The translations under genes were made by a program, and so were the position numbers. The notes under the pieces were generated by a model that worked only from the letters and a program-made list of their open reading frames with translations, did not search any database and had not been told where the DNA came from. Below, piece by piece: positions 28,977 through 56,900 of a stretch of DNA of 64,000 nt (position 1 is its first letter; each line of letters opens with the position of its first letter). Source of the DNA: an uncultured Solirubrobacteraceae bacterium (GTDB taxonomy: Bacteria > Actinomycetota > Thermoleophilia > Solirubrobacterales > Solirubrobacteraceae); NCBI GenBank assembly GCA_963830345.1, contig CAWHLZ010000004.1, positions 1,362,590 to 1,426,589 on the forward strand. Direction: 5' to 3'.

Positions 28977-36736
<7,760 letters not shown>

Positions 36737-37134: not shown

Positions 37135-37521
37135 CTACTTCACCTCGACGCTCGCGCCGGCCTCCTCGAGTTCCTGCTTGAGCTTGTCGGCCTCCTCGCG
37201 TTCGATGCCCTCCTTGACCGGCTTGGGGGCCTCGTCGACGAGCGCCTTGGCCTCTTTGAGGCCAAGGCCGGTTGCCGCGCGCACGACCTTAATGACCTGG
37301 ATCTTCTTGTCGCCGGCGCCGGTGAGGATCACGTCGACGGTGCTGCTCACTTCCTCCTCAGCAGCAGCGTCCCCGCCACCGCCTGCAGGCGCTGCCGCAG
37401 GGGCCGCGACGGCTGCGGCGGACACGCCGAACTCCTCCTCGAGCGCCTTGATCCGCTCGGCGAGCTCGAGCACGGAGATGCCCTTCAGCTCCTCGATCCA
37501 ATCTTGTGTGCTGGTAGCCAT
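37135..37521 (-). CDS. rplL: 50S ribosomal protein L7/L12
   Basis: 128 aa, ...[61 protein letters not shown]. Confidence 0.96.
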
Positions 37522-37526
37522 GTGTG

Positions 37527-38357: not shown

Positions 38358-38448
38358 GGGGCTCCTGTCCCGGGCTTGTGCCGCGCTGGCCGATCTTCGA
38401 TCGGTCCACGACTGCCGGAGGTCTTTGGTGGCCTATGGCGGGATGACG

Positions 38449-39180
38449 CTAGGCGGCGATGGTAGCCGCGGGCGCCTCCTCGATGATTTCGCGTGTCTTT
38501 GAGGGGTCCACCTTGACACCGGGACCCATGGTCGAGGCGATGGTAATCGAGCGTAGGTAACGGCCTTTGGCGGCGGACGGCTTGGCGCGGATCAGCTCTT
38601 CGACGACGGCGGCGTAGTTCTCGAGCAGCTTGCGCTCCTCGAAGCTGACCTTGCCGATGACGAGGTGCACGATGGCGCTGCGGTCGGTGCGGTACTCGAC
38701 CTTGCCGGACTTGGACTCCTCGACGGCTTTGCCGACGTCCATGGTGACGGTGCCAACTTTGGGGTTGGGCATCTTGCCGGAAGGCCCGAGGATGCGCCCG
38801 AGCTGGCCGACGACGGACATCATGTCGGGCGTGGCGATGGCGACGTCGAAGTCGTCGAAGCCCTCCTGAATCCGTTTGGCGAGATCCTGAGCGCCAACGA
38901 CGTCGGCGCCGGCCTCTTCGGCCTCGCGCGCCTTCTCGCCCTGAGCGAACACGGCGACCTTGACGTCCTTGCCGAGACCGTTGGGGAGGGCAATGGTGCC
39001 GCGCAGCTGCTCGTCGGCGTGGCGCACGTTGAGGCCGGTGCGCACGTGCACCTCGACCGTCTCGTCGAACTTGGCGCCGCCGAGGCCGCGCACCAGTGCG
39101 ATTGCCTCGACGGGCTGGTACTCGTGCTCGCGGTCGACCTTGGCGAGCAGCTCGGAGTAACGCTTGCCGTGCCCGCTCAC
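38449..39180 (-). CDS. rplA: 50S ribosomal protein L1
   Basis: 243 aa, ...[42 protein letters not shown]. Confidence 0.96.
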
Positions 39181-39602
39181 GACGCAACCTCCACGCCCAT
39201 CGAGCGGGCGGTTCCAGCGATGATCTTGGCGGCCTGGTCGACGTCGTGGGCGTTGAGATCGTCCAGCTTGCGCTCGGCGATCTCACGCAACTGGCCCTGG
39301 GTGATGGTGCCGACCTTCACGCGATTGGGCTCGCCGGAGCCCTTGTTGATCTTGAGCGCCTGACGGATCAGCACGGCCGCCGGCGGAGTCTTGGTGACGA
39401 ACGTGAACGAGCGGTCCTCGTAGACGGTGATCACGACCGGGATGACGGTGCCGGTTTCGCTCTGCGTCTGCGCGTTGAACGCCTTGCAGAACTCCATGAT
39501 GTTGATCCCGTGCTGCCCCAGCGCAGGGCCGACCGGCGGGGCGGGGCTCGCCTGCCCGGCGTTCGCCTGCAGCTTGATGGTTGTGAGGACCTTCTTGGCC
39601 AT
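39177..39602 (-). CDS. rplK: 50S ribosomal protein L11
   Basis: 141 aa, [39 protein letters not shown]. Confidence 0.97.
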
Positions 39603-40123
39603 TAGAGCTTCTTCACCTGATCAAATTGGACTTCGACTGGTGTCTCGCGACCGAAGATTGATACCAGCACCTTGAGCCGGGCGGCGTCGTCGTTGATCTC
39701 GGAGATCTCGCCGGAGAAGTCGGACAGCGGGCCGGAGACGACCTTGACGGACTCGCCGATCGTGAACTGGGCGCGGGCGCGAGTGGCGGTGGCGACCTCC
39801 TTGTGGAGCAGGCGATCGACCTCGCCCTGGGTGAGCGCCACGGGCTCTTGGGAAGCGCCGACGAAGCCGGTGACACCGGGCGTGCCCTTGACGACCCCCC
39901 AGGAGTCCTCATTGAGCTCCATGTTGACGAGCACGTACCCAGGCATGGTGCGCTTCTCGACTGTGACCTTCTGGTTGTCCTTCATCTCGGACACCGCTTC
40001 GGTGGGCACGACGACGCTGCGCACGGCGCGCTGCTGCCCGAGCGACACGACGCGGTGCTCGAGGTTGTGCTTGACCTTGTTCTCGTGGCCAGAGTATGTA
40101 TTTACGACGTACCAGCGAAACAT
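39602..40123 (-). CDS. nusG: Transcription termination/antitermination factor NusG
   Basis: 173 aa, [22 protein letters not shown]... with a C-terminal KOW ([24 protein letters not shown]). Confidence 0.95.
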
Positions 40124-40130
40124 TTAGACC

Positions 40131-40760
40131 TCAGAGGACGAATTCCACGATTTCCTTGGCGACGGTGTCTGCCACGCCAAGATAGAGACCGGCGATCGCG
40201 ACGAACCCGATCACGACCGCGGTCGCCTGGGTGACCTGACGGCGATCCGGCCACTGCACCCGTTGGAGCTCAGCCCAGCTGGCACGCGCGAAGCCAATCG
40301 CGCGGTTGCCGCCGCGCAGAGGAGCACCGGACGGGCGCTCGCTGTCGCCCGGTCCTTCGCGACCTCCGAAGCCTCCGCCTGAGCCGTCAGGCGGAGTTGG
40401 TCCTTTCGGTCCTTGGGGTTCCTGAAGCTTGTCCTCGCCGATGTCACGCTCGGACAGAGCCTCGGCCTTGATTTCGACCTCGGAGAGCTGATCGGGCGCC
40501 ACGGGCATACCACCGGCGCCGCGGACGAGAGCGGCGTCAAACTCGTCGACGTCCGCGGAAGCATGGTCCAGTGATCCGGGCAGATCAGCGCGCTCGAGCG
40601 CTCCGGGCACGGCGGCGCTGGCCGATCTCTGATCGGTCGGCTGGCTCGGCGAGGTCGCCGGAGCGCCACTGGTCGCCCCGTCGCCGCCCGCACGCCGGCG
40701 GACAGCCGCGCCACCGCCGCGAGCGCGGCGCTGCTTTGCACGTTTGCGGTCACGGGCCAC
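40131..40760 (-). CDS. secE: Preprotein translocase subunit SecE with a long N-terminal low-complexity extension
   Basis: The C-terminal ~60 aa form SecE (FARASWAELQRVQWPDRRQVTQATAVVIGFVAIAGLYLGVADTVAKEIVEFVL). It sits between rpmG and nusG. Confidence 0.88.
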   Translation of the reverse strand: MARDRKRAKQRRARGGGAAVRRRAGGDGATSGAPATSPSQPTDQRSASAAVPGALERADLPGSLDHASADVDEFDAALVRGAGGMPVAPDQLSEVEIKAEALSERDIGEDKLQEPQGPKGPTPPDGSGGGFGGREGPGDSERPSGAPLRGGNRAIGFARASWAELQRVQWPDRRQVTQATAVVIGFVAIAGLYLGVADTVAKEIVEFVL

Positions 40761-40775
40761 GGCAGCGCTCCCGCG

Positions 40776-40940
40776 CTAACGGGTCTCCCTGTGGCTGGTG
40801 TGCTTGCGACACCAACGGCAGTACTTGCGCAGGGTGATCCGGTCAGGGTTGTTGCGCTTGCTCTTGTTTGTCTGGTAGTTGCGATGCTTGCACTCCTCGC
40901 AGGCGAGGGTGACAGCAATTCGAACGTCTCCGCGGGCCAT
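40776..40940 (-). CDS. rpmG: 50S ribosomal protein L33
   Basis: 54 aa from the internal ATG: [54 protein letters not shown] (CxxC...CxxC). Confidence 0.93.
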
Positions 40941-41224
40941 GATCAGAAATCCCTGCGTCGTTGTGGACAGGCGACTCTGGGCGAAGAAAAACCCCGCCCA
41001 GGCGCGAGGTCCAAGCAGTCTAGCGCGCTTTCGGCCTGAGGAACCCGCCCGTCGAGCGGGCATCGACCCGCCCGCCCGAACGTGCATCGGCGAGGTTGAC
41101 GCGCGCGGCGCGATCACACGGCGCGATTGAGCTTGACGCGAGCGGCGCAAACCGCGAAGCTCGCACCGCCGATCTGTTCCTGACCCGCCGCCAGCCAGCA
41201 CACCCAGAGAAGGAGATCCACACG

Positions 41225-41995
41225 ATGCCCTTGCCCGAGCCGATCCCCGTAAGCGCCCACGACGAGTCGTTCGCCGGCACCACCTACCACATCCGCGGCG
41301 AACTGGTGCCCGAGCTGCAGATCGATATCAGTGGGCAGCAGGTGATGTTCGAGCACCACGTACTGCTGTGGAAGGAGACGCAGCTGAACGTCGAGCTGAA
41401 GAAATTGCCGGGGGCGATCAAGCGCAAGATTGCGGGCTTGGAGTTCTTCGTGACGCGCACGTCTGGCTCCGGGCGGGTTGCGTTCTCGCGCGATTCGCCC
41501 GGCCAGTGCGTGCCGATGCACTTGAGCCAGGGCGAAGGGCTGGACGTGCGCGAGCACCAGTTCTTGGCGGCGACCGACAACCTGGACTACAGCTTTGAAC
41601 GCATCAAGGGCGTACAGAACATGCTGCTGGGCGGCTCGGGGTTCTTCATGGACAAGTTCCGCGCGACCAACGGCGACGCGCTGGTGTGGCTGCACGGGCA
41701 CGGCAACGTGTTCCTGGTCAATCTCGGCCAAGGCGAGCAGCTGGACGTCGAGGCGGGCGCGTGGCTGTACAAGGACCCGTCGGTCAGCCTCGAGGCGGTG
41801 ACGATGGGCCTGAAGACGGGGATCATGGGCGGCGGCGGCAAGCTCACGTGGAACCGCTTCACCGGCCCTGGGCGCCTGGCGATCCAGACGATGTTCATCG
41901 CACCGATGGAGGGCGAACCGGTCAGTGGCAACGCGCAGGCGGCGACCGCGGGGGGCCTTGCGGGCGCGTTGATCGGGGGCCTCACGCGCGGCTGA
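41225..41995 (+). CDS. AIM24/DUF124 (TIGR00266-like) family protein
   Basis: MPLPEPIP...[29 protein letters not shown]...[49 protein letters not shown]...[15 protein letters not shown] chose the ATG at 41225, preceded by GAAGGAG. Confidence 0.8.
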
Positions 41996-42511: not shown

Positions 42512-45500
42512 CTACTGCTTCTTGGCGATCTGCTTCTTTGGGGTTTTGGTCGGGTACTTCTTGCGGGCCTGCTTTTCGCAGGCGGCGCGTTTGCGCTTGT
42601 GTTTGTCCTTGCGGCAGGCCTTCAGGGCTTTGGCGAGTAGCTGCGCCTTGGTGGGCTTGATGGTCTTGGAGGGGAGCACTCCGTTGCAGCCGCTGACGGC
42701 GATCTTCGTGGTCTGGTTGATGACCGCGCCGTTCTGACCGGTGACCTCGGTGGGCATCGAGAGGCTCGCTTTGCACAGGCTGAAGTCGTCTTTTTCGGGG
42801 ACGTTGGGGGTCAGCACCGAGTGCGGGCCGGCCGGCAGGTCGGTTTCGAAGATCGTGAACGGCGCGTCGGGGGTCGATTCGAATTTGGAGTAGGTGATGC
42901 CGTTTTTGATGTCGGTCTTGCCGTCCACCACGAGCGTGATCCCTTCGCCCTGGAGCACGAACTCGACGTCGGGGAACGCGGCGGCGCCGTGGGAGACGAG
43001 GTAGGCGGGGCCCGTGAGGGGGCTCTTTAGGACAGGGGTGTGGATCGTCGCGTTGCCGATCACCGAGCCTTCATCACAGGACGCGGGGTTCGCGTTGAAG
43101 ATCTGTTCGGGGCAGGCTTTCTGCAGCGTCGGCAGCCGTGAGGAGAGCGCCTTCGGTAGCTGCAGGTCGACTTTCGCGATACCCGCCTGTGTTACACCCG
43201 TCGCGTCCATGCCGCCCGAGGTGACGGTCACCTTCAGGCTCGTACCGTCGGTTTTGCTGCCTTTGCCCGCGGCGGTGGCGGTCAGCTTGGGGGCAAATGG
43301 CAGGCTCTGGCAGCCCGCGACCTGGAAGCGCGAAGAGACCTGCTCGCTCCCACCCTGAGCGCCCGTGAGAGCGCCCGCGATGCCCATCGGGTTGCAGTTG
43401 GTGGGGTTGAACTCAAAGCCGGGGCGATCGACGGTCACGTTGATCTGTTTGAGCTGCACCGGGACACCCCGCACGAACTGCGGGAACGGGTCGCTGGTGA
43501 TGCTCACCGCCGCGGTCTCGGGGTTGACGTCGATCCGCGAGCGGACGTCCACGTCGCCGAGGTTGAACGGGCCCGCGACCGCGGGGGTGACGACCAGCAG
43601 CCCGAACGGCGCGCCGCTGTAGCCGACCGTCAGGTACACCTCTCCCGGGAGCGTGACCGGTTCGCCGCCGAGACCCGACTGCGCGGTCGATTGGCCGATC
43701 AGGCTTTCCGGGCCACACGCCCATTCCTGTCCTGCCGGGGGTTCGGGGCAGGGCGTGAGCGTGGAGAGCAGCGCCGCGACGCCCGGCGGCAGGCTGATCG
43801 AGACCCCCTGCAGTGGCTGGTCGCCGTCCGGGTTGTTGATCTGCAGCGTGAATGGGGTGAACGCGCCCGCCTGCTCGTTTGTCGAGCCGGCCTGGAAGCT
43901 CGGCGCGAACGCCAGCGGGTCCGGCGGGCACGGCCCACCCCCCGCACCGGTGCTGATCGCGAATGGCGGCTCGGATTCGGGTTCCAACGTGGCGCCCGAC
44001 CAGGCGGTGAACGACGTTCTGGCGCTATAGGTTCCGCACGAGGCAGGGGTGCTCACAGAGCCACGGGGGCCACCAAAGAGCTGCAGATTCAGTTCTTCGA
44101 AGGGGACTTGCGGCGTGTTCTGAAAACTCGTCGTGATCTGGCCGGTTTGTTCGTTGAGCTTCCCTTCGCCAGCGAGCTTGACCCGCAGGCCCAAGACCGA
44201 ACTTTCCGCGACGATATACAGCGCCACAAGCGAGTTGAACGGGTTCTCGCCTGCTTCTGCATTGGGTGCCGGGGTCGCCAGGTAGACGCCGCCCTGCAGT
44301 TCTTCATCCAAGAGCGGGGTCTTGATACGCACGCTGCCGAGCTTGGATGCCCGCGGACACTCGGCTTTTTCGGTTGAAAACCGCAGCGGTTCTGGTGTGC
44401 CAGGCGAGAGCGGATCCGTGCCGCCTGCTCCCAGATACCCGATCTGTGTCTCCGAGCACGCTTGCAGCCCGTTGGCCGCGGAAGGGTTCAACAGCAACCC
44501 TTCGGGCAACGTCACGGTCGTGCTGCGGACGTCCGCGTCGCCCAACGCGCCTTCGGTGAGCGTCCCCTGCTGGGCGACGCGCACGTCGACGTCCAGCCCC
44601 GTGGGGGTGCTCGCGGCATCGACGCGTTCCTCGGGGTGGCCTTCTTCTGCCTGCTGTTCGGGTGCGACTGTGAGCGACGGGGCAAACGGCAGCGCTTGGC
44701 AGCCTGCGAGCGTTTCCAGGGGTTCACCTGTCTGGTTCTGCAGCGTGAACTGGCTTTGCAGCTGGCTACCGGTCCATGAATCGCCTTGCATGCTGGTGTT
44801 CAGCTGGCCGGTGCAGGCGGTCGGGAGCGTCAAAAACGGGATCCCGCTACGGTCTTTGAGCGTTTCGCATGTTTCCCCCGGGTTGCGTTCGATGCCTTCT
44901 CGCAGGCACGCCCAGCCACGTGAGGCGTCATGGCTCTGGCTATCGGGTTGTCCCCAGAACGTGATCTGCGCCGCGAGGATCTGCGCGGCCGCGGTCGTGT
45001 TGCTCGTGCTGACCGTCACACCGTAGTCCCCGCCGGAGCGCACGGCGGTATCGAGGATAACTGGGACGGCGTCTGCGACGAACCCGAAGCTCGCGGGCTC
45101 ACCCTGCGCCGGTTCCAGATTGAACACCGGGACAGCGAGCGTGATATGCCCCGCCCTACTTGGTTCTAGAAGGCTCACGATCGCGACCCCGATCGCTGAG
45201 CCCTCGGGGCAGAGGTTCCCGACGTCGAACGCGGAGAAGTCCGAGGCCGAGCACTCTTCGCTGGCCTGCACGTTCCCCAGTAGGCCCGGTGGGAGGTTGA
45301 AGCTCAGATCCTTGGTTTGTGCGGGGGAGGCCGGCTCGAGCTCGACGGGTTCCCCGGGCTCCTGGACTTCTTCGAGGATCTCGTTGAAATCGACCGTGCT
45401 CGTCAGCTGAAACGGATGCGAACCCGCCTGGCTATCAACCCCACCCCCTTCATCTTCCGGGACGATCCTGTAGCCGTCTTCTTCGATCCCGAACGGCACC

Positions 45501-46111
45501 GGCTGCCCACTGACCCGCACCATCCTCGTCAGCGACTGGCCCGGGACGTTCCCGCCGCCTTCGGCTTCCCCGCCTGTGACGCTCGCCCGATTCGATAGCG
45601 CCGTGACGGTGCCGGTGGGCTCTCCCACGCGGATCGGGATTTCCATTTCCAGGCGTTCAAACGGCGGGATCGCGAGCAACGTACTACAGCTCACTTCCTG
45701 ACCCACCACCGAACATTTCCAGTCCGCTGCTCGTTCCTGCGCGTTGCCCTGCCCGACCCGCGCCCGATGCGGATTCACCGCACTAGCCTCGGTCACGGCG
45801 AGTCCTGCGGGTAGTACATCCTTGATCGTGACTTCGCTGACGGCGCCGGTGATGCCCGTATCGCCCATGTCATCCGCGGCGACATCGATCACGCCTTCCC
45901 CACCGGGCGCTAGGAACGTCGGTGCGGCTCGTGCTGAAAGCCCCCACCACGCACCCGCAAACGCCGGGGCAGCAGACACCAACACACCCACAAGCACACC
46001 CACCAACACCACCAACACCCGCACCCGTGTACGTGGCCGCGGCCGGCGAACCCCCGCCCGCCGGCGCGGACTCGCTCTCTCTTGGATACTCCGCTCGGGG
46101 CGCATGCTCAC
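42512..46111 (-). CDS. A1: about 1199-aa secreted modular protein (signal peptide, DUF11-like N-domain, four Cys-pair modules, basic two-Cys C-terminal tail)
   Basis: Long ORF with a conserved paralogue (A2). The N-terminus RVRVLVVLVGVLVGVLVSAAPAFA|GA looks like a signal peptide. The GTG start overlaps the B1 stop (GTGA), with AGGAGG upstream. ...DVLPAGLAVTEASAVNP...WKCSVVGQEVSCST resembles DUF11/'conserved repeat' domains. Confidence 0.88.
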   Translation of the reverse strand: MSMRPERSIQERASPRRRAGVRRPRPRTRVRVLVVLVGVLVGVLVSAAPAFAGAWWGLSARAAPTFLAPGGEGVIDVAADDMGDTGITGAVSEVTIKDVLPAGLAVTEASAVNPHRARVGQGNAQERAADWKCSVVGQEVSCSTLLAIPPFERLEMEIPIRVGEPTGTVTALSNRASVTGGEAEGGGNVPGQSLTRMVRVSGQPVPFGIEEDGYRIVPEDEGGGVDSQAGSHPFQLTSTVDFNEILEEVQEPGEPVELEPASPAQTKDLSFNLPPGLLGNVQASEECSASDFSAFDVGNLCPEGSAIGVAIVSLLEPSRAGHITLAVPVFNLEPAQGEPASFGFVADAVPVILDTAVRSGGDYGVTVSTSNTTAAAQILAAQITFWGQPDSQSHDASRGWACLREGIERNPGETCETLKDRSGIPFLTLPTACTGQLNTSMQGDSWTGSQLQSQFTLQNQTGEPLETLAGCQALPFAPSLTVAPEQQAEEGHPEERVDAASTPTGLDVDVRVAQQGTLTEGALGDADVRSTTVTLPEGLLLNPSAANGLQACSETQIGYLGAGGTDPLSPGTPEPLRFSTEKAECPRASKLGSVRIKTPLLDEELQGGVYLATPAPNAEAGENPFNSLVALYIVAESSVLGLRVKLAGEGKLNEQTGQITTSFQNTPQVPFEELNLQLFGGPRGSVSTPASCGTYSARTSFTAWSGATLEPESEPPFAISTGAGGGPCPPDPLAFAPSFQAGSTNEQAGAFTPFTLQINNPDGDQPLQGVSISLPPGVAALLSTLTPCPEPPAGQEWACGPESLIGQSTAQSGLGGEPVTLPGEVYLTVGYSGAPFGLLVVTPAVAGPFNLGDVDVRSRIDVNPETAAVSITSDPFPQFVRGVPVQLKQINVTVDRPGFEFNPTNCNPMGIAGALTGAQGGSEQVSSRFQVAGCQSLPFAPKLTATAAGKGSKTDGTSLKVTVTSGGMDATGVTQAGIAKVDLQLPKALSSRLPTLQKACPEQIFNANPASCDEGSVIGNATIHTPVLKSPLTGPAYLVSHGAAAFPDVEFVLQGEGITLVVDGKTDIKNGITYSKFESTPDAPFTIFETDLPAGPHSVLTPNVPEKDDFSLCKASLSMPTEVTGQNGAVINQTTKIAVSGCNGVLPSKTIKPTKAQLLAKALKACRKDKHKRKRAACEKQARKKYPTKTPKKQIAKKQ

Positions 46112-49100
46112 CAGCCCCTCCTCACGCTCGACACCGGGGTGGCCTGGGTCTTTTTGGCTTTAGGTTTGCTTTTGCCCTTCGGCTTGGCGCCATAGCGCTT
46201 CCTCGCGCGTGCTTCACAGACGATTCGCTTGTGCCGGGTTTTGAGTTTTCTGCAGGCCTTTAGCGCGGTTGCGAGCTTCTGCCTGCGGGTCAACGGTTTG
46301 GGTTTGGGTGTCGTGTGGGTTTTGGAGGGCAGCACACCCGTCGCGATGTTCCCGGGCCCGGAGAACGTCGCACTCGCAGCCGCCGACACCAACGACACGC
46401 CTTCACCCGAGGAGGGCCGGCAGCTACCCGTCGCTTCGCATTCCTGCAGCACCGAGCTGTTCGAGGACAGACACGGCGACGCGGTCGTGCAGACCCGTGC
46501 GTCGTAGATGTCGTAGGCGTTGTCGGTGTCCGCGGGCACGAGCTGCGCGGCGGTCAGGAAGAACACGTTATTCCCGTTTTCGCTGGCGTCCAGGAACGCT
46601 GATTCTTTACCCGAGGTGCCAGAGGAGATCAACCCGATACAGCCACTAGAAGAACCACAGCTCCCGACATTTTCGGGCTCGTACTCATACACGTCCTCCT
46701 TGCCGTTCTTATCGGTGGGGACAAGCGCATCCGGGCTGTCGAAGAACAGCCGGCCCGCATTGGAGAGATATCGTGGTTGGTACAACGCGGCCGGTGCACC
46801 ATAGAAAATGTTGAACGTCCATCCCGGGATCGACCCCGCTAGCCACCGGTTACGCCAGATTTCTGGGCGATCCACGAGCAACCCCAGCCCTTCGCCCGCT
46901 AGTTCGGTGTCGAACACCCCTTCGGGGTGTTTGAACCCGCCGTTTTCGCTGACGGGGTTACACGACGCGCATACCAGCCGTCCGGTCTGTGCGTCATACA
47001 AGAACACCTCCTCATCAGGCTCCCCACCGTTGGCGTTGTGGTTGTCATAGCCCGTGAGGCTCTCCTGGGACATGAACGCTAGATACTGGCCGTTAGGGGA
47101 GACGCTGGAGGTCACGGCCGCGATGTTCCCGTTCGAGGGCGGCAGGTTCGACGTCAACCCCGCGCCCCAGTCTGCTGCGTCTTCGTCAGAGAGCGCCGCG
47201 ATGAACCGCGTTTGGCGCACCCCGGGGTCTTGGGGGTCGGGTTCTGAGACATACAGGTTGCACGTCGCACCCGGTGGTGGGAGGGGTGCTTCGGCTTCGG
47301 GGTCACGCACGCATTCCCCCGGCGTAGCGCCCGCCGCGAGGACCCCATTCGCTACGAAATACACCCGCGAGCCGTCCTGCCCCGTGCCGGGGATCAGGTT
47401 TAGGACATCCCCGCTACCGGTGATCGGGTCTGGGGTTAGGTCGCTCAGCCGGCCCCGCAACGCTTCGCCCGCGCCGCTCGTGATTTCAAACTCGTATAGG
47501 TCGGCGGGGGCTTCTTCGCCGACGGGTTCCTGCCCTGATTCTTCGGTTAGCCGGGCGGTGTCGGTGAAGAACACCCTGGAGCCATCGCTGGAGGCGCTCT
47601 GGAAATGCACTTCCTGCTCGCCTTCGCCGGGTTCGGGGAGCACCCCACCGTGTTCGCCGGGTTCGGTTGACCCCTGCCCCTGCGCCGCATTGACCTGCAC
47701 CGTTTCCCCCGTACCGGTGTCCCGCAGATACAGCCGTTCGGGGACCTGATGCACTTCCTCACTCCAAAACACCCGGCTACCATCAACAGAGACCGCGTTG
47801 CGTGCGTTCAGATCCCCACCATCACCAAGCGCCGGCTGGGACTGCGACAGCGTTTCATCCAGTGCTGGCAACCCATCCGGCAGCACACTCACCAGCTGCA
47901 ACGGCTCCCCAGCTTCCCACTCATACAACCCCGCCGCCGAAGGCGCCGTCGCGGTCAAACCGACCTTCGATTCAAAAATCACATGCGACAGATCACTCGT
48001 CGCCCCCAAGAATTCCAGGGCACCGCCGAACCTGGTGCCCGCCGTATCATCCCCCGCCGTCACCAACGGCGTATATCCCGGGGCAGCGGGTGGGTCTTCG
48101 CTACGCACATACAACGTCTTTTCCGTAGCTTCAGGTGATAGCGGTGGGTCTTCTACGACCCCACCAACACCATACGCGGGTTCCGTCGGCGCGAGGAGAC
48201 TCTCCCCGAGTTCGGGAGAAAAATAGTGGTACTCCGAGGGAGCTGGCAGCAGCAGACCCCGCCCCCTGTCGTGTGGTGTTTCAAGACTCGTGGTTTCCCA
48301 GCCGTCTGGGCCGCGTCTGGAGATCAGCTGCGCCAATTCGAAGCTACGGTTCCCCAGCGGTTCGCTGACGACCGGCCCCGAGGCCGCCCACACCAGCCCA
48401 TCGCCACCCGCTGCGGCCTGGATACTCGCGCCCCTGGAGCGCGAGACCGTTTCGACCGCCGCGCCGTGCTTATCCGGCGGGGAAACCATTTCCCACGCAC
48501 GCCCATCCGGCAACACGCCGGCCGAGGGCAACGTCGTGAACGTGTCCACCGATGGCACCCCTTCAACGCTACCCGCCGCGTTGCTCGCCAGCACCCGGTA
48601 GAAATACGCAGTCGCCGGCGCAAGACCCGTCACTTCGACGCTGACGTCCTGGTCGCCGAAGCCCGCCGCGAGCTTCCCCACCCCCACATCCGTACATGAC
48701 GCCGGGTTGAGCGTGCAATCGACGGTGCCGTACTGGAAATAGTATTCCGTTTCCCCACCCCGCGGATCGATCTGCGCACTCAACCGCTCCGAGCTCGCAC
48801 TCACGCCCACCGCCGAGACCCCATCCACGACCGGCGCCGCCACCACCGATTCGGGGATGAACACCTCCACCATATCCGCGTCAAGCTCGGGGACAAACAC
48901 ATCCCCCGTCGCTGAATCCATTGCAACCCCAGCACCACCCGTCAACTGCCCCATACCGAACCGCTGGATCAACACACCCCCCGGCGTGAACGCCGCGACA
49001 CTACCCCCCTCATCCAAATACACCACACCCCGACCCGCCCTCCCCAGCGGCGTGCCTTCCCCACTCGCCTCATCAACCGCGACACCCGTCGTATTTTCGT

Positions 49101-50022
49101 GATCCAACTCGTCTGCCAGGACCCTGGGTTCCGGTGCCGTACCGTTCAGCTTCGCGACCAGCAACGGATCCGGGGTTTCGCCCTCCTGCCCTGGACATTC
49201 TTCGCTAGCACTCTCGTGTTCATAGCCAACATAGAAAGCTTCGTCTTCCGCAGCGACCGCGAACCCCGGCCTCGCCGCACACGAGAATTTCTCTTCGACT
49301 TCCGGGGTGCGACGCAACGCGGGCTCCCACACAAGCCGCACGCCTTCGCTTTTCGTCGACTGTTTACTAAACCCATCAATCACGCCTTCTTCATCCCAAT
49401 ACACCCACAACACCCCAGCCGCGTCCACCGCCACACCCGACACATCTTCAAATTCGAGTTCTTCTTCCTTGACCTTGAACCTTTTCCATTTATGAATCAC
49501 CGCCCCCACAGACGGGCTGTACTCATACACAACATCCCGTTCCCCCGGCCCAGCTTCCTTTTCTTCTGAGCCCACCACGTACACATCACCACGCGACGGA
49601 TCTGACGAGCTCACCGAGTTATCAACCGCGATCGCCCCCGGCGAATGCACACCAAACTCCGACACATATTCAAAACCCCCAGCCCCATCAGGCTTAAAGA
49701 TCTCGACCCGTTCCCCACCAGCATCCACCACATACACAACACCCGTCGCTTCATCAACCGCCACCCCCGAAGCACCCTCAAACTCCCCACCACCAACACC
49801 AACCCCACCAAACACAGACCCAAACACATGCCCCCGCACACCCAACCCCAACGCCGAACCACACCACAACACCAACACCCCCACCAACACACACACCACA
49901 ACACACAACACACGCCAACCACCACACACACGGTTCAAACCCGCGCGAGCCCCCACATGCTCAGAGGCCACCCTAACGCCGACGCTGTTGCTTTCACCCA
50001 TCACACACTCACATCCACTCAC
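46108..50022 (-). CDS. B1: about 1300-aa secreted protein (NHL-like repeats, FN3-like domain, PD40/TolB-like propeller repeats, basic two-Cys C-terminal tail)
   Basis: Long ORF with paralogue B2. The likely start is ATG 50001 (MGESNS). Hydrophobic N-terminal segment WRVLCVVVCVLVGVLVLWCGSALG. GVAVDEATGVVYVVDAGGERVEIF (NHL-like). ETEYYFQYGTVDC...VTGLAPATAYFYRVLASNAAGSVEG (FN3-like). DGSRVFWSEE / DGSRVFFTD / DGSRVYFVANG / NGQYLAFMS (PD40-like). Confidence 0.88.
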   Translation of the reverse strand: MSGCECVMGESNSVGVRVASEHVGARAGLNRVCGGWRVLCVVVCVLVGVLVLWCGSALGLGVRGHVFGSVFGGVGVGGGEFEGASGVAVDEATGVVYVVDAGGERVEIFKPDGAGGFEYVSEFGVHSPGAIAVDNSVSSSDPSRGDVYVVGSEEKEAGPGERDVVYEYSPSVGAVIHKWKRFKVKEEELEFEDVSGVAVDAAGVLWVYWDEEGVIDGFSKQSTKSEGVRLVWEPALRRTPEVEEKFSCAARPGFAVAAEDEAFYVGYEHESASEECPGQEGETPDPLLVAKLNGTAPEPRVLADELDHENTTGVAVDEASGEGTPLGRAGRGVVYLDEGGSVAAFTPGGVLIQRFGMGQLTGGAGVAMDSATGDVFVPELDADMVEVFIPESVVAAPVVDGVSAVGVSASSERLSAQIDPRGGETEYYFQYGTVDCTLNPASCTDVGVGKLAAGFGDQDVSVEVTGLAPATAYFYRVLASNAAGSVEGVPSVDTFTTLPSAGVLPDGRAWEMVSPPDKHGAAVETVSRSRGASIQAAAGGDGLVWAASGPVVSEPLGNRSFELAQLISRRGPDGWETTSLETPHDRGRGLLLPAPSEYHYFSPELGESLLAPTEPAYGVGGVVEDPPLSPEATEKTLYVRSEDPPAAPGYTPLVTAGDDTAGTRFGGALEFLGATSDLSHVIFESKVGLTATAPSAAGLYEWEAGEPLQLVSVLPDGLPALDETLSQSQPALGDGGDLNARNAVSVDGSRVFWSEEVHQVPERLYLRDTGTGETVQVNAAQGQGSTEPGEHGGVLPEPGEGEQEVHFQSASSDGSRVFFTDTARLTEESGQEPVGEEAPADLYEFEITSGAGEALRGRLSDLTPDPITGSGDVLNLIPGTGQDGSRVYFVANGVLAAGATPGECVRDPEAEAPLPPPGATCNLYVSEPDPQDPGVRQTRFIAALSDEDAADWGAGLTSNLPPSNGNIAAVTSSVSPNGQYLAFMSQESLTGYDNHNANGGEPDEEVFLYDAQTGRLVCASCNPVSENGGFKHPEGVFDTELAGEGLGLLVDRPEIWRNRWLAGSIPGWTFNIFYGAPAALYQPRYLSNAGRLFFDSPDALVPTDKNGKEDVYEYEPENVGSCGSSSGCIGLISSGTSGKESAFLDASENGNNVFFLTAAQLVPADTDNAYDIYDARVCTTASPCLSSNSSVLQECEATGSCRPSSGEGVSLVSAAASATFSGPGNIATGVLPSKTHTTPKPKPLTRRQKLATALKACRKLKTRHKRIVCEARARKRYGAKPKGKSKPKAKKTQATPVSSVRRGW

Positions 50023-50099: not shown

Positions 50100-50876
50100 T
50101 CAAACGTACGCGTTCAACTCTAGCTTTTCTTCGCTTTTCACGGTAGAGGTGATGATCTGATCAGCCTGATCAAACCCTTTGCCAGCGAAGTCCGCTTCGA
50201 GGACATCCTTTACTTTTTTCCCGTTTTCTTCATAGTATTCAAGTCCCTGGAAACCATGTTTGCCCTTGTACTTCAGCGTAACCGTTTCGCTCATTTTATC
50301 CACAGGCACATTCACAAGGATCGAACCACGCACCGCCACCGTCAACGAAGCACCACACGTGAATTCAATGAACTTTTCCGCGCCGCCGCTCGGATACAGA
50401 TCCAACGCTGCCTTGTGTTCTTTTTCCTTTTCCCACACAACACGGCCTTCTAGCGGCACTGTTTCCAATTCGCCTTCTTTCAAGCCAACTGTCGTGCAGA
50501 TAAACGGCGTGACTTTGCATCCTTTGAACGTGACGCGCACGTTCGCTACTTCTTTCGTGCCGACATATTCCCCGGTGCTGGTCTCAGTTTCGCAGCCAAC
50601 CTGGTATTTACCGACTTCTTCTAGCACTGCTTTACCACCCGTACTCGTCTGGAATTTCTTCACCACGCCCGGATGCCATTCATATTTACCAGTTTTGGTT
50701 TCGCTTTTCGTCGTGCAACCCGAATTCGTGAATTCACCACTATAAACTTTGCCCACCTTAGGAGCCTTTTCGCACCTGCCATATTCCGGCGCCTGCGCCG
50801 ACGCACTCGCCACTCCGACTACGCCGACCACAAACGCGACGGCGAGGCACACGCCCAAAAATCTCAAACGTTTCAT
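50100..50876 (-). CDS. C1: 258-aa secreted, Lys/Glu/Thr-rich protein with six Cys; family unknown
   Basis: Signal peptide MKRLRFLGVCLAVAFVVGVVGVASASA|QA. Close paralogue C2. G+C is visibly lower than in the core genes. Confidence 0.85.
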   Translation of the reverse strand: MKRLRFLGVCLAVAFVVGVVGVASASAQAPEYGRCEKAPKVGKVYSGEFTNSGCTTKSETKTGKYEWHPGVVKKFQTSTGGKAVLEEVGKYQVGCETETSTGEYVGTKEVANVRVTFKGCKVTPFICTTVGLKEGELETVPLEGRVVWEKEKEHKAALDLYPSGGAEKFIEFTCGASLTVAVRGSILVNVPVDKMSETVTLKYKGKHGFQGLEYYEENGKKVKDVLEADFAGKGFDQADQIITSTVKSEEKLELNAYV

Positions 50877-51083
50877 CTCAACGCTATCCCTTCTACCCTC
50901 GATATAGATTAGCCATCAACCAACTCAACGCAACCAAACGTCGTGATGAGCCACGCGTCGCCAGCCACCAAGCCGGATGTCCTGCGATGACGGGACCCCG
51001 CGCTCAAACTCGAGACACGGGATCCCGCCGCAAACGACCCTAGGAACCTACCCTAGAGCCCAGCTCCAGCATTGAGTTCTAGA

Positions 51084-52001
51084 TCACACTTCTCCGTTTT
51101 CGAACTTTTCTCTAATGAAGTGAGCGTTGGCCGTATACAGATTGCCCTGTAGAATTGTAATTCCGTGCTGGCCGGGCAGTTCGAGTACTTTGTTGATCGC
51201 GGCATCGACATACGCTTCATCTTCGCCACTACCACACCCGTTTGCGTCGCTTCCTGCTTCGACGGGCCAGCCGAGATCAACTAGCCTGCTTTCGGCGAGC
51301 TCAATCGTCAAGAATTCGTAGCCCTCCGAGAATTTGCCTACCGCACCCGGGTCTTCCGACGTCAGATCCTGCCATACTGGGCTTGTTTCAGAGCCTATCT
51401 CACACGGTCCGCCACCCAGTTTTTCGACCCATGAGTTTATCATTCTGACCTTTAGCGGCAACTTGAATGCAGTACCTTTTCCTTCGATGATGTTTTCGGT
51501 GTTGAGTGCACCAGGCGTTTCACTGATCAGATTGCCACCCGCCAGTTCAATTTTGACGTTCAGGCTGGTTTCTTTGTTCTTCTTGGCTTCCTTGAAGCTC
51601 TGCTTCAAAGATTCCGGCCAACCCGCTTCTTCCTGATCCCGAGTGGTGATCAAACCCAATCCACCTTGAACCTTTAGTTCAGGAGCTTCCAGCGTCTGGT
51701 AGCCGTTGGCCGCCCCGATGACCGTCAATTCCCCTTCTGTACCTATAAACCCGCCCTGAAGGACGATCGGCTTGTTGAGCTTCACCACCACGTTACCTAG
51801 CTGGAAAAAGCCGCCCTTGCTGCCACCGGCGGTCACTCCGGCGAAGCAGTCGTTGATCTCTGTGTTGCTAACTGGACAGCCTTTGTATTGGGTGAGGCTT
51901 TCAACTGTATATCCGCTCTTCGCCAGCGCCGGCATCGCGGCCACTGCGCTCACCGCGAAAGCGGCAACCAGACAGAGGCCCAGTATCCTTACATGTCTCA
52001 C
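51084..52001 (-). CDS. D1: 305-aa secreted protein with four Cys; family unknown
   Basis: Signal peptide MRHVRILGLCLVAAFAVSAVAAMPALA|KS. GTG start with AAGGAG 11 nt upstream. Diverged paralogue D2. Low G+C. Confidence 0.85.
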   Translation of the reverse strand: MRHVRILGLCLVAAFAVSAVAAMPALAKSGYTVESLTQYKGCPVSNTEINDCFAGVTAGGSKGGFFQLGNVVVKLNKPIVLQGGFIGTEGELTVIGAANGYQTLEAPELKVQGGLGLITTRDQEEAGWPESLKQSFKEAKKNKETSLNVKIELAGGNLISETPGALNTENIIEGKGTAFKLPLKVRMINSWVEKLGGGPCEIGSETSPVWQDLTSEDPGAVGKFSEGYEFLTIELAESRLVDLGWPVEAGSDANGCGSGEDEAYVDAAINKVLELPGQHGITILQGNLYTANAHFIREKFENGEV

Positions 52002-52286: not shown

Positions 52287-53162
52287 TCACGCGGCCTGCC
52301 TGACCCTCGCGCGGGCTGGCCGCTCAGGCACCACAGCGCCACCGGAATCGAGCAACTCGAGTACACGCTGCCCGCACTGCGTCAACAGCCAAGCATTCTC
52401 TCGCCGCGAGCCATTGCGAGGCGTAACCTTCTCGATCAAACCCCGCCGCGCGAGCCGACGCAGCAAATGCGACGTCTGACCCTCATCCGCAAGACCCGCC
52501 GCCTCAGCCACCTCACGATTACTCAAACGCGGCGCACAAGCAATCACACGCAACACCAGCGCCGCACGATAAGTAAACGGCACCGGAGCAACAACCTCAC
52601 ACCCACCAGACCCCACAGACACCCGCCCTGCAGCCACAGAACTCCCCGCCGGCTGCACACTCGCGGCGGCCTGCCCCAGATATGGCACCACGATAAACGA
52701 CATCAACGACGGCGCCAACTCCACCAACGACCCACCACCCTGCTCGAGCATCCGCGCACGAATCACAGAAAACACACCACCGACAACCAGCTCACCAACC
52801 AGCGTCGTAGACAGCGCCAGATCCCCACCCACAATTCCCCTACCACGCCTACCCTGCCCATCATTCAACAGCTCACCCAGCACCCCCTGCACACGCTCCA
52901 CACACCCACGCGCCGCCATCTCCGCCTCGAACGCCTCGACAACCAGCAGACGACCCCACCGCGGCTCGTCCTCAAGAAACCCAAGCAACGCCACCAACCC
53001 CGCACGCGTACGACCCAACCAGTACTCCTCACGCCCAACCGCCTCCAACACCACCGCACAAAGCCGCCCCAACCCCTCCTCAAACGCCGCCAAGAAGCAA
53101 GCCTCGACACTCTCAAAGACCTCATAAAACACAGCCTCCGACACACCCGCAACAGCGACCAC
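52287..53162 (-). CDS. R1: regulator with a TetR-type ligand-binding region plus a C-terminal winged-helix HTH; it lacks HTH helix 1 and a promoter in the present DNA orientation
   Basis: It opens VVAVAGVSEAVFYEVFESVEACFLAAFEEG, i.e. inside the TetR HTH. Only 15 sense codons separate the GTG from an upstream in-frame TGA. The C-terminus is YRAALVLRVIACAPRLSNREVAEAAGLADEGQTSHLLRRLARRGLIEKV...ENAWLLTQCGQRVLELL (MarR/ArsR-like wHTH). Confidence 0.7.
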   Translation of the reverse strand: MVAVAGVSEAVFYEVFESVEACFLAAFEEGLGRLCAVVLEAVGREEYWLGRTRAGLVALLGFLEDEPRWGRLLVVEAFEAEMAARGCVERVQGVLGELLNDGQGRRGRGIVGGDLALSTTLVGELVVGGVFSVIRARMLEQGGGSLVELAPSLMSFIVVPYLGQAAASVQPAGSSVAAGRVSVGSGGCEVVAPVPFTYRAALVLRVIACAPRLSNREVAEAAGLADEGQTSHLLRRLARRGLIEKVTPRNGSRRENAWLLTQCGQRVLELLDSGGAVVPERPARARVRQAA

Positions 53163-53165
53163 CGA

Positions 53166-53195
53166 CTCGGCTAGACGGGGGTCACTGCCGTGTGC
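53166..53195. repeat. Left arm of a 30-bp inverted repeat (IRL)
   Basis: ctcggctagacgggggtcactgccgtgtgc. Its reverse complement matches 53526-53555 at 28/30 positions. It encodes AHGSDPRLAE on the minus strand. Confidence 0.85.
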
Positions 53196-53283
53196 GCCGT
53201 GCGACCATCAGACCTCGGGGGGTGTCCACGCGCCGTGACTATGGGCTTGGACGTTGGATCTCACGCTTGCGCCGACGGATGTC

Positions 53284-53357: not shown

Positions 53358-53582
53358 ATGGAGGGAAGCAGAGCGGGCATCATGGACGGCAAGACCCAGA
53401 TCAGGTGGACCCTCGGGTCCTCCCACGACACCCAGCGCTCACGCCCAAGACGCGCAACCACGGGCGCTAGCGAGCAAACCGAGTCCCTCCGCGCCAAGCT
53501 CATCGCCGCGACCGTCGAGGTCCTCGCCCACGGCAGTAACCCCCGTCTAGCCGAGACGGCGCACACACGCATAGCCCCGTAG
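53358..53582 (+). other. Detached 5' coding segment of a TetR-type regulator (HTH helix 1), on the opposite strand from R1
   Basis: ATG preceded by GGGGAAGGGA. It reads MEGSRAGIMDGKTQ...SEQTESLRAKLIAATVEVLAHGSNPRLAE, then runs out of the IR into TAHTRIAP*. Helix 1 is of TetR type (RxKIxxAAxxLxAxxG). Confidence 0.6.
53526..53555. repeat. Right arm of the 30-bp inverted repeat (IRR)
   Basis: gcccacggcagtaacccccgtctagccgag; it encodes AHGSNPRLAE on the plus strand. Confidence 0.85.
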
Positions 53583-53979: not shown

Positions 53980-56900
53980 CTATTGCCTGTCCTTGGCCTT
54001 GGTGGTTGTGTGGGCTGGTTTTTTGACGGGGTGTTTTTTGTGGGCTTGGTGTTCGCAGATGAGGCGCTTGTGCTTGTTCTTGTCTTTGCGGCAGGCTTTG
54101 AGGGCTTTAGCGAGGCGTTGTGTGTTGGTGAGCCTGGTGCTGGCGTGGATATGGCAGCCGGTGATAGCGACGTTCGTGGTCTGCTGGAGCATGTCGCCGT
54201 TTTGGGCGGTGATGCTAACCGGGAGCTGAAGACTAGTCTTGCAGAGACTGAAGTCTTCTTTTTCCGAGACATTCGGGGTAAACACAGAATCCGGGCCGGC
54301 CGGGAGTTCCGTTTCAAAACTCGTGAATGATGCGTCAGGCACCGATTCCAGATGCGAGTAAGTGATCCCGTTCTTGATGTTCGTCTTAGCATCCACGACG
54401 ATCGTGATCCCTTCACCCTGCAACACAAACTCCAGATCCGGGAATTCCGCACCACCATGAGAAACGAGATACGCCGGGCCGATCAGCGGGCTCTCCAAGA
54501 CCGGAGTATGCACAATCGCATGACCAATCACCGAGGCCGCGTCACACGAGGCAGGGTTCGCGTTGAATGCCCGTTCGGTGCACGCCTTCTGCAGCGTACT
54601 GAGCCGCGAGGACAGGGCTTTGGGGATCTGGATCGCGAGCTTCGCGATATTCGCCTGCCCGATCCCCGCCGAGGTGACCTTGATATTCAAGTTCGTACCA
54701 TTGGCTTTACTGCCCTGCCCCACCGCCGAGGCCGTCAACTTCGGCGCAAACGGCAGGCTCTGGCAGTTGGTGACCTGAAACGGCGAGGACACCGGGATAC
54801 TGGCGCCCTGACCGCCGGTGAGGGTGCCGGTGATACTCATCGGACTGCAGCTGGTGGGGTTGAACGTGAACTGCGGCCGATCGACCAGCACATCGATCTG
54901 TTTGAGCTGGGCCGGGACACCCTTCACGAACATGGGGAACGGATCGCTTTCGATCGTGACCGCAGCCGTCGCGGGGTTCACGTTGATCCTCGAACGGACA
55001 TCCACATCACCGAGGTCAAACGGTCCCGCGACCGCGGGGGTGACCACCAACAGCCCAAACGGCGCACCGTCATACCCCACCGTCAGGTAGGCCTCACCGG
55101 GTAGCGTCACAGGTTCTCCACCCAGCCCGGCGGTCGCGGTGGACTGCCCAACCAGGCTTTCCGGGCCACACGCCCACTCCCCGCCAGCGGGGGGTTCCGG
55201 ACACGGCGTCAAACCCGCCAGAACCGCCGCCACACCATCAGGCAGATGCAATGCCAGGGACTTCAGGGGCTGTTGGCCATCAGGCCGGTTGATCGTCAAC
55301 GTAAACGACGTGAACCCCCCGGCCTGCAGACTCGTAGAACCCGCCAGGAAAGACGGCGCGAACACCAACGGGCTGGGTGGACAGGGCCCGCCACCCACAC
55401 CGGTGGCAATCTGGAACGGCGGTTCGCTTGTCGGGTTGCTGGTGGTGTTGGTCCAGGCCGTGAATGAGCTTGTCGTGGTGTAGCTCCCACACGCTGGGGG
55501 GGTACTCAGCGCCCCGCGGGGGCCACCAAAGAACTGCAGCCGCAGTTCTTCGAAAGGGACCTGCGGCGTATCCAGAAAACTCGTCGTGAGCTGGCCTGTC
55601 TGTTCATCCAGGCGCCCTTCACCGGCGAGCTTGACACGCACACCCAAACGCGAACTTTCCGCCACGACATACATCGCCACCAGCGAGTTGAACGGGTTCG
55701 CCCCCGGTTCCCCATTCGGGGCAGGGGCCGCGAGATACACCCAGCCCTGCAGTTCTTCCCCCAACAAGGGGGTCTTGATCCGCACACTGCCGAGCTTCGA
55801 CGCTTCCGGACACGCTGCTTTTTCGGTTGAGAACCGCAGGGGCTCACTAGCGCCTGGCGCTAGGGGATCCACGCCGGGGTTGCCGAGATACCCGATCTGT
55901 GCCTGGGAGCAGGCCTGCAGCCCGTTCGCGGCAGACGGGTTCAACAACAGCCCTTCGGGTAGCGTCACCGTCGTGCTGCGAACGTCTGCGTCTCCCAACG
56001 CGCCTTCGCTGAGGGTGCCCTGCTGAGCGACGCGCACAACAACACCAAGACCCGTCGGGGTACTCGCCTCCTCCACCCGTTCCCCCGCATGCCCTGCTTC
56101 AGAGGGCTGTTCGGATGGCTGTTCGGGCGCCACCGTCAACGACGGGGCGAACGGCAGCACCCCACAGCCTTCCAAGGCTTCCAGTGGCCCACCGGCCTGG
56201 TTTTCAAGCGTGAACTGGCTCTGCAGTTGATCCCCGGTCCACGAATCCCCTTCCATACTCGTGCTCAACTGGCCGGTGCAGGCGGTCGGGAGCGTCAAAA
56301 ACGGGATCCCGGAGCGGTCTTTGAGGGTTTCGCAGGTTTCCCCCGGGTTCCGTTCGATACCTTCTCGCAGACACGCCCAGCCACGTGAGGCGTCATGACT
56401 CTGGCTATCAGGCTGCCCCCAGAACGTGATCTGCGCCGCGAGGATCTGCGCCGCCGCGGTCGTGTTGCTCGTGCTGACCGTCACGCCATAGTCCCCGCCG
56501 GAGCGCACAGCGGTATCGAGGATCACCGGGACGGCGTCTGCGACGAACCCGAAGCTCGCGGGCTCACCCTGCGCCGGTTCCAGGTTGAACACCGGCACAG
56601 CGAGCGTGATATGCCCCGCCCTACTCGGTTCCAACAAACTCACGACCGCAACCCCAACCGCCGAGCCCCCAGGGCAGAGGTTCCCGACGTCGAACGCGGA
56701 GAAGTCCGAGGCCGAGCACTCTTCGGTGGCCTGCACGTTCCCCAGCAGGCCCGGCGGGAGGCTGAAACTCAGGTCCTTCGTCAACGCCGGGGCAGCCGGC
56801 TCAAGCTCGACAGGTTCTCCGGGCTCCTGGACTTCTTCGAGGATCTCGTTGAAATCAACCGTACTCGTCAACTGAAACGGATGCGAACCCGCCTGCCCAT

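Follow-up and report, generated by a model that had tools for sequence, protein, structure and literature searches.

The 64,000-nucleotide (nt) stretch of DNA analysed here, called the window throughout, comes from an uncultured Solirubrobacteraceae bacterium and encodes four giant proteins, A1, B1, A2 and B2, that share a basic, two-cysteine tail at their C-terminus. This tail is the subject of the present analysis. The four genes belong to a four-gene cassette on the minus strand that is tandemly duplicated (42512-63826), with a unit of ~11.44 kb and copies that are 73-88% identical in DNA. In each cassette a 305-amino-acid (aa) protein is followed by a 258-aa protein, both with N-terminal signal-peptide-like segments, then by B and finally by A (Table 1). 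Protein identity reaches 79% between A1 and A2 and 90% between B1 and B2, and the N-terminal hydrophobic segments of the four tail-bearing proteins score 2.7-2.9. In both cassettes the stop codon of B and the start codon of A share four nucleotides (GTGA, at 46108-46111 and 57555-57558), implying that translation of A would be coupled to that of B. The interval at 46108-46338, on the minus strand, holds the last 76 residues of B1; a plus-strand reading of the same interval was discarded, its translation being meaningless.

The bodies of A and B are strongly acidic, with a net charge of -61 to -119 and an isoelectric point (pI) of 4.1-4.4 (-65 and 4.3 for the A1 body, -114 and 4.2 for that of B1). 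AlphaFold2 models full-length A1, from a 120-sequence alignment, as an all-beta multi-domain body with a predicted local distance difference test score (pLDDT) of 87.6. Foldseek found only weak, low-TM-score matches of a multi-immunoglobulin (Ig) type for this model, and 1921 homologues of A1 were found. B1 weakly resembles NHL and FN3 domains and, in a C-terminal region, PD40; the sole NCBIfam match on B (release of June 2026), an N-terminal one, is to the NHL repeat region of ScyF. As for the small proteins of the cassette, the 258-aa one has six cysteines and the 305-aa one is acidic. Neither has a tail or a Pfam match, so that the tail is present on some, not all, of the signal-bearing proteins of the cassette.

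Table 1. Genes of the two cassettes and parts of their tails, in window positions.
Feature	Position	Strand	Description
A1 gene	42512-46111	-	1199 aa: N-terminal signal peptide, acidic all-beta multi-domain body, linker, tail
A1 tail core	42542-42664	-	TIKPTKAQLLAKALKACRKDKHKRKRAACEKQARKKYPTKT; Cys1166, Cys1178; HMM envelope residues 1150-1190, 56.5 bits
B1 gene	46108-50022	-	1304 aa: signal or anchor helix, body, linker, tail
B1 post-core polycationic extension	46111-46179	-	KGKSKPKAKKTQATPVSSVRRGW; last codons overlap A1 start
B1 tail core, 43-position domain	46180-46302	-	PKPLTRRQKLATALKACRKLKTRHKRIVCEARARKRYGAKP; Cys1257, Cys1269; HMM envelope residues 1241-1281, 55 bits
B1 pre-tail linker	46303-46338	-	GVLPSKTHTTPK; Pro/Thr/Lys-rich
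Small signal-bearing protein upstream of B1	50100-50876	-	258 aa
Small signal-bearing protein upstream of B1	51084-52001	-	305 aa
A2 gene	53980-57558	-	1192 aa, A1 paralogue
A2 tail core	54019-54141	-	STRLTNTQRLAKALKACRKDKNKHKRLICEHQAHKKHPVKK; HMM envelope residues 1140-1180, 50.7 bits
B2 gene	57555-61517	-	1320 aa, B1 paralogue
B2 tail core	57627-57749	-	PKPLTRKQKLAKALKACRKLKTRHKRAVCERQARRRYGAKA; HMM envelope residues 1257-1297, 58.3 bits
Copies of both small signal-bearing proteins, upstream of B2	61538-62314 and 62526-63440		

A C-terminal domain family of Solirubrobacterales

Minus-strand translation of the window reproduced, letter for letter, the four tail peptides given in an earlier note on this DNA. 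In a six-frame translation of the window, LKAC occurs in a tail context at these four sites only, and the four core sequences also form a 4-copy DNA repeat family of 81 nt (D11, 62-75% identity). The note had taken A and B for otherwise unrelated proteins that share the tail as a module, and blastp bears this out: A and B resemble each other strongly in the tail alone (E 1e-10 to 6e-13), and every match outside it has E >= 2e-4, mostly in signal-peptide regions. The ratio of nonsynonymous to synonymous substitution rates (dN/dS) of the tail core, computed on small samples of 41 codons, is 0.29 for A1/A2 and 0.21 for B1/B2; it is ~1.0 in the linker and post-core extension of the A proteins.

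A profile built from the four tails matched 222 proteins in a word-indexed search. We then ran the hidden Markov model (HMM) scan that the earlier note had proposed, as an exhaustive HMMER search of 1.84 billion cluster representatives with a 105-sequence profile, and found the tail in thousands of clusters: 4008 representatives matched at E <= 1e-3 and 361 at E <= 1e-10, numbers far above chance. The tail is a discrete, autonomous C-terminal domain of ~43 residues with the consensus LTRAQKLAKALKAC-(10-15)-CExxARKRYG, with which the core motif of the note is consistent. Members follow the pattern LTxAQxLAxALxxC-(10-15)-CExxA[RH]xxY, at most ~50 residues from the C-terminus of a signal-peptide-bearing protein. 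All four tails of the window fit it, score 51-58 bits against the family HMM and lie 9-23 residues from the C-terminus. Conservation over the 43 positions of the profile is highest at T5, Q8, L10, A13, L14, C17, R28, C31, E32, A35 and Y39, indels are limited to loop columns 20-24, and the two cysteines are spaced by 10, 11, 13 or 15 residues.

In the matches inspected, the C-terminal position of the domain is nearly invariable. In the first set, the distance from domain to C-terminus is 0-46 residues in all 243 HMM-positive proteins, and the set from the exhaustive search departs from this only in four gene calls that extend beyond the tail. Two of these (P0272 and P0316) go from a B tail into an A-like N-terminus, making them B-to-A read-through fusions. 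The word-indexed search returned solely proteins of <= 142 aa. Stand-alone small tail peptides were considered and rejected, those inspected being C-terminal fragments or frameshift-split ends of large proteins from long-read metagenome-assembled genomes (MAGs), and no mini-protein made of a signal peptide plus a tail was seen among the small proteins inspected. For instance, at one long-read MAG locus (L001, 7980-8195) a homopolymer frameshift cuts the tail off a 781-aa FN3 protein as a 64-aa open reading frame (ORF). Such splits probably help to explain the prevalence of short proteins in the word-indexed search.

Isolated tails gave no match to NCBIfam even at E <= 10. With the four full proteins and the isolated tails, Pfam at E <= 10 returned only chance-level matches in the tail (Penaeidin, E 0.1; UPF0542, E 1.2), and a profile search of PDB sequences with the tail returned no match. 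No paper tying Solirubrobacterales to a C-terminal tag was found in the literature, where the string LAKALKAC matched the synthetic KALA peptide only. The earlier note had named two outcomes that would speak against its idea, a motif that occurs nowhere else and is free of purifying selection, or one that belongs to a described domain. What we find is a widespread tail with a core dN/dS of 0.2-0.3 and without a Pfam, NCBIfam or PDB-sequence match. Judged by these comparisons, the domain is previously uncatalogued and a member of no described family; as a kind of element, it would belong with the C-terminal surface tags already known.

The carriers are diverse. The tail HMM matches 119 of the 120 A homologues listed, the sole miss (P0153) having a register-shifted Cys pair, and most matches of the exhaustive search are B-like, either at full length or without the N-terminal modules. 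Other carriers are NHL+FN3, FN3-only and InlB-B-repeat+FN3 proteins, a trypsin-like protease with a Glu/Lys-rich helical stalk, an RCC1+TIG protein, a PKD protein, and three proteins without a Pfam match (a Cys-rich repeat protein, a Cys-rich protein of ~260 aa and a protein with Ig-like regions). In most carriers a low-complexity linker leads into the tail. An N-terminal hydrophobic export segment is present in 174 of 204 long carriers, and the long carriers without one are probably truncated.

Genome loci were obtained by searching one-genome-per-species GTDB contigs with a 14-sequence profile, and the best 80 of 295 confirmed matches were analysed. All 80 are from uncultured Solirubrobacterales or Solirubrobacteraceae MAGs (Actinomycetota, Thermoleophilia), and the source names in the protein searches agree with a restriction to Solirubrobacterales. 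Members of this order are widespread soil and peat Actinomycetota; the source organisms of the tails are soil and peat MAGs, and the tail-carrying lineages seen here are MAGs only. Matches labelled Terriglobales or Isosphaeraceae are partial proteins on MAG contigs of 2.4-3.4 kb and, since all of the 80 best loci belong to Solirubrobacterales, are probable binning errors. The tail is on a B-like protein in 54 of the 80 loci, and an A-like gene lies within 0.9 kb after it in at least 36 of those 54.

Predicted fold, cysteine pair and charge

Predicting the structure of the tail, as the earlier note had also proposed, gave a helix-loop-helix. The tail-only AlphaFold2 model (105 sequences) has helices at residues 6-18 and 23-36 with a pLDDT of 89, and in the model of full A1 a low-confidence linker (1145-1151, pLDDT < 50) leads into helices at 1155-1167 and 1172-1185. 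Conserved residues are spaced i, i+3/4, i+7 on both helices, suggesting antiparallel contacts between L10 and Y39, A13/L14 and A35, and C17 and C31. In Foldseek, the tail model came closest to plant alpha-hairpinins and to saposin A, with a TM-score of ~0.7 and E ~1, a resemblance that we treat as analogy only.

Exactly two cysteines, in columns 17 and 31, are found in 394 of 394 tails. All other cysteines of mature A1 and B1 fall into sequential close pairs (10 and 7, respectively), as expected for oxidised exported proteins of actinobacteria. A natural variant is informative here: P0153, a full-length A homologue from a Solirubrobacteraceae MAG with an ungapped alignment, has its cysteines in columns 13 and 35 and alanines in columns 17 and 31. 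Compared with the other tails, the Cys pair and the next Ala-Ala contact, one helical turn away, are thus interchanged, and the two cysteines have moved in opposite directions along the sequence, a register shift that supports a disulfide-stapled antiparallel hairpin. The disulfide-stapled basic helical hairpin imagined in the earlier note therefore stands in its fold, which both AlphaFold2 models contain, while its staple is supported indirectly: invariant cysteine columns, paired cysteines in the bodies and the P0153 variant argue for an intramolecular C17-C31 disulfide. Two other roles for these residues were tried and rejected: a zinc site (there are only two cysteines and no conserved histidine) and a lipobox (the L-K-A-C motif lies at the C-terminal end, outside any signal peptide, with Lys at -2).

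The core is extremely basic, with a mean net charge of +13.3 per 41.5 aa. It consists of 21% K, 18% A and 14% R, and W, F, I and M are almost absent; in the window proteins, linker and tail together carry +14 to +26. From tail start to protein end, the Kyte-Doolittle score over 19-residue segments reached a maximum of 0.60 among 385 tails (mean -0.45), and no tail of the 385 exceeded 1.6, i.e. none has a transmembrane-like segment. This agrees with the view of the earlier note that the tail has no hydrophobic helix and is not an LPXTG, PEP-CTERM or GlyGly-CTERM signal, of which neither an LPXTG motif nor an NCBIfam match was found.

Ala, Val, Gly, Thr, Pro and Ser are abundant among the 20 residues that precede the tail, a composition similar to that of the wall-spanning linkers of LPXTG proteins. 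The post-core extension measures 0-46 aa across the family and is rich in K, A, R, S and G (K 24%, A 16%, R 15%). An element V[LK]x[SA]K lies just upstream of 144 of 324 tails vs 2 of 232 control segments. Most of its occurrences are in A-family proteins, where it is conserved within the linker predicted to be disordered (V1145 at >= 90%), and some B proteins have it too. Conservation of a residue in such a linker points tentatively to a short linear motif, which may be a site of processing. A related heptapeptide, GVLPSKT, is found before the tail in A1, B1 and B2 (42665-42685, 46318-46338 and 57765-57785).

Two contiguous copies of the tail are present in 32 of 391 carriers (~8%), in a sample that is enriched for doubles because double copies score highest. 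Tandem duplication is more in keeping with a binding domain than with a signal that is cleaved off.

Proposed surface retention and alternative functions

We suggest that the tail is a non-covalent, cationic surface-retention module that binds an anionic polymer of the cell envelope. The evidence for such an anchoring role lies in architecture and charge, and we put it forward tentatively, with a likelihood a little short of even. It is proposed because the tail is an autonomous, sometimes duplicated unit, placed at the C-terminus behind linkers on unrelated exported carriers, and because it is restricted to one order, carries a high positive charge opposite acidic bodies and has no membrane helix. 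The finding of all 80 loci in Solirubrobacterales is consistent with a lineage-specific envelope ligand. In the mechanism that we envisage, an N-capped, amphipathic helix 1 (TRAQKLAKALKAC) would be joined by a variable, very basic loop to helix 2 (KRxxCExxARKRY), and the two would pack antiparallel via small residues (L10/Y39, A13-L14/A35 and C17/C31). A disulfide between C17 and C31 would staple the hairpin after Sec export, and an unstructured Lys/Arg/Ala-rich extension would follow helix 2. The tail would hang on a flexible Pro/Thr/Ser/Lys linker below the strongly acidic extracellular body, and non-covalent, largely electrostatic attachment to an anionic polymer of the envelope, for example a wall glycopolymer or a lipoglycan, would keep secreted Solirubrobacterales proteins at the surface with the acidic body projecting outward.

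By analogy, the functional class proposed is that of the wall-binding modules, which retain proteins by binding wall polymers. Those catalogued as non-covalent modules of Gram-positive walls are SLH, CWB1/choline-binding, CWB2, LysM, SH3b, WXL and SPOR (PMC5817068). The tail resembles them in being terminal and in occurring on many unrelated secreted proteins of a lineage, and tandem copies are frequent in those systems. It differs in that it is 43 aa long, all-helical and extremely basic, with one Cys pair, whereas the known modules are folded repeats of 40-100 aa, mostly multiple. GW is a further module of this kind. Pfam profiles of LysM, SH3b, SLH, CWB1, CWB2, GW, WXL, SPOR and Cpl-7 gave no significant match to the four full proteins or to the isolated tails.

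A second comparison is with the LPXTG, PEP-CTERM, GlyGly-CTERM and PGF-CTERM signals, which also occupy the extreme C-terminus of many proteins per genome, are lineage-restricted, follow a low-complexity linker and end in a basic cluster. However, these signals consist of a motif and a transmembrane helix, neither of which the tail has, and tandem duplication is no feature of theirs. The last 100 residues of A1, A2, B1 and B2 contain no [LIV]Px[TSA]G, which 'VLPSKT' does not fit, and of the membrane segment and basic tail of LPXTG proteins only the basic character is present, the hydrophobic part being missing from all 385 tails. Signatures of the exosortase, rhombosortase or archaeosortase type were likewise not found, there being no NCBIfam match at E <= 10 and no transmembrane segment. 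The C-terminal domain of the type IX secretion system is a beta-sandwich of 70-100 residues from Bacteroidota; the tail is a 43-residue, all-helical domain from Actinomycetota without a Pfam or NCBIfam match.

In fold, the tail-only model conforms to the helix-loop-helix of ~30-45 residues that characterises alpha-hairpinins. Plant members such as BWI-2c (PDB 2lqx), the vicilin-buried peptides and Tk-hefu are also helix-loop-helix structures of ~40 residues, often basic and held by interhelix disulfides. They have two disulfides in a CX3C...CX3C arrangement, whereas the tail has one Cys pair and no CX3C, and they are plant peptides released from precursors to act as inhibitors or antimicrobials, unlike a C-terminal module of giant bacterial proteins. 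Closer in lineage are the mycobacterial proteins HBHA and Hlp/HupB, surface-associated and with very basic, Lys/Ala/Pro-rich C-terminal domains that bind sulfated or anionic glycoconjugates. These domains are actinobacterial, C-terminal and basic like the tail, and their composition resembles that of its post-core extension; in contrast to its conserved folded hairpin they are Cys-free low-complexity repeats thought to be disordered, with no detectable homology to the tail.

Several observations weigh against surface retention by charge. Residues T5, Q8, R28, E32 and Y39 are conserved at 88-98%, a specificity that exceeds the needs of generic electrostatics and could indicate a specific protein partner. 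According to DSSP, helix 2 starts 6 residues before C31, and the C17-C31 contact needs the overhanging N-terminal part of this helix. No tail was seen in IMG/VR viral contigs, in a scan that used the narrow exact pattern LAKALKAC, and no tailed peptidoglycan hydrolase or phage endolysin was found. A comparison of the tailed trypsin-like protease (locus L041) with its homologues (P0393-P0494) speaks neither for nor against retention: of 120 homologues, 99 lack the tail and have another C-terminal beta domain. This other C-terminus comprises a conserved beta-type segment of ~60 residues (GG.VKTVTLHLS.KAR.LL), which is not a known anchor, followed by a short basic stub (KAKHGKG, KKRKR); together they may form an additional C-terminal module that takes the place of the tail within this lineage.

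The same evidence of charge and fold would also suit a tail that binds polyanions outside the cell's own envelope, be they extracellular DNA, biofilm matrix, humic or clay surfaces, plant pectin or other cells, and that acts as a general 'sticky end' immobilising adhesins and enzymes in the soil matrix. The carriers are adhesin-like, with one protease, their source MAGs come from soil and peat, and the octapeptide LAKALKAC of helix 1 is identical to part of KALA (WEAKLAKALAKALAKHLAKALAKALKACEA), a designed cationic amphipathic helix that binds polyanionic nucleic acids, both oligonucleotides and plasmid DNA (PMC10253970). Yet KALA, unlike the tail, is synthetic, membrane-disrupting and a single long Leu-rich helix, and the exact identity is convergence of low-complexity sequences, not homology; it does show that sequences of this class bind DNA. 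Generic polyanion binding would need neither the strict lineage restriction nor the highly specific residues, and a C-terminal place behind linkers of the wall-spanning type is the classic geometry of retention at the own surface; we consider such outward binding unlikely. More clearly disfavoured is an in-plane membrane anchor, in which amphipathic helices would rest against the cytoplasmic membrane from outside, bound to the head groups of anionic phospholipids. Helix 1 does have a Leu/Ala/Cys face opposite a Lys face, and KALA as a designed peptide interacts with membranes (PMC10253970), but in the prediction the hydrophobic face (Ala, Cys and three Leu) is hidden in the interface of the two helices, W, F, I and M are virtually absent and the maximum hydrophobicity is far under that of membrane segments. 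Linkers of 10-100 residues and giant bodies would, in addition, still need to cross the wall, and we regard this anchor as extremely improbable.

A different kind of function is that of a sorting or processing signal: a dedicated enzyme or export factor would recognise the folded hairpin and then cleave, modify or covalently attach the protein, following a sortase- or exosortase-like logic without the membrane helix. A strictly C-terminal, lineage-restricted element on many proteins per genome has the distribution typical of NCBIfam sorting-signal families; specific polar residues are conserved, and the V[LK]x[SA]K element upstream of A-family and some B tails could be a processing site. However, no transmembrane segment would hold the substrate at the membrane, conservation is structural and heptad-like over all 43 residues instead of a short linear motif, and duplication in 8% of carriers is unexpected for a signal. 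ORF clustering of the 80 loci, with much shadow-ORF noise from high G+C, revealed no recurrent partner enzyme next to the tails and recovered only a transcription regulator, a lipoprotein-like family and collagen-like proteins, although partner genes need not be linked. Recognition by a processing or export factor, which the earlier note had offered as its other option, thus found no support in neighbouring genes and has the tandem copies against it as a cleaved signal; we judge it quite unlikely. Very doubtful, too, is a more elaborate form in which a new sorting or attachment pathway, specific to Thermoleophilia/Solirubrobacterales, would recognise proteins by this tail, with dedicated machinery that cleaves it or couples it covalently to an envelope polymer and with tandemly amplified B-A cassettes that encode the main components of an undescribed surface layer. 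As for protein-protein docking, the hairpin could bind the acidic A/B-type bodies or another tail, possibly via interchain disulfides, in the assembly of a surface lattice or an A-B complex resembling a surface layer. The opposite charges of bodies and tails, the translational coupling of B and A, the proximity of an A gene in 36 of 54 B-tail loci and the many paralogous cassettes per genome would all suit docking. Against this, the tail also ends single, unpaired carriers (the protease, the RCC1+TIG protein and small Cys-rich proteins), two +13 tails would repel each other, and the remaining cysteines of A1 and B1 all pair locally. The Cys shift of P0153 fits an intramolecular pair, whereas an interchain partner would have had to shift as well. 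Docking seems very unlikely to us.

If binding to an envelope polymer, the reading that we favour, is true, the tail would be a new minimal surface-retention module, a single-disulfide cationic helical hairpin whose small size could make it useful as a display or immobilisation tag. Adhesin-like giants, proteases and repeat proteins from at least 4000 sequence clusters end in this tail, which defines a candidate 'surfaceome' of Solirubrobacterales. Its profile provides an annotation handle in the form of a new model of the Pfam/NCBIfam type, and the tail draws attention to the conserved B-A gene pair, present in multiple copies, as a major surface system yet to be explored.

Surroundings of the cassettes

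Downstream of the first cassette lie a gene of the AIM24 family (41096-41995, plus strand) and the conserved rpmG-secE-nusG-rplK...rplJ-rpoB-rpoC block (28977-41201, minus strand), which places the cassettes in a core chromosomal region and not on an obvious island. Between the two cassettes we found a regulator gene (52287-53162, minus strand; 291 aa) with weak winged-helix matches of the MarR/IclR type, and related regulator genes stand beside B-A pairs in ~19 of the 80 Solirubrobacterales loci. A 35-nt inverted repeat is located between this gene and A2, with arms at 53162-53196 and 53525-53559 that are 91% complementary and 328 nt apart; it could be the remnant of a small mobile element or a regulatory structure. 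The stretches that encode the small proteins (50100-52001 and 61538-63440) differ in composition, with a G+C content of 0.53-0.58 vs ~0.66 and a strong negative GC skew. Elsewhere, paralogues of the A family are numerous on single contigs. At the edge of the window, 63767-63998 resembles 52333-52564, suggesting a further copy or regulator past the window end.

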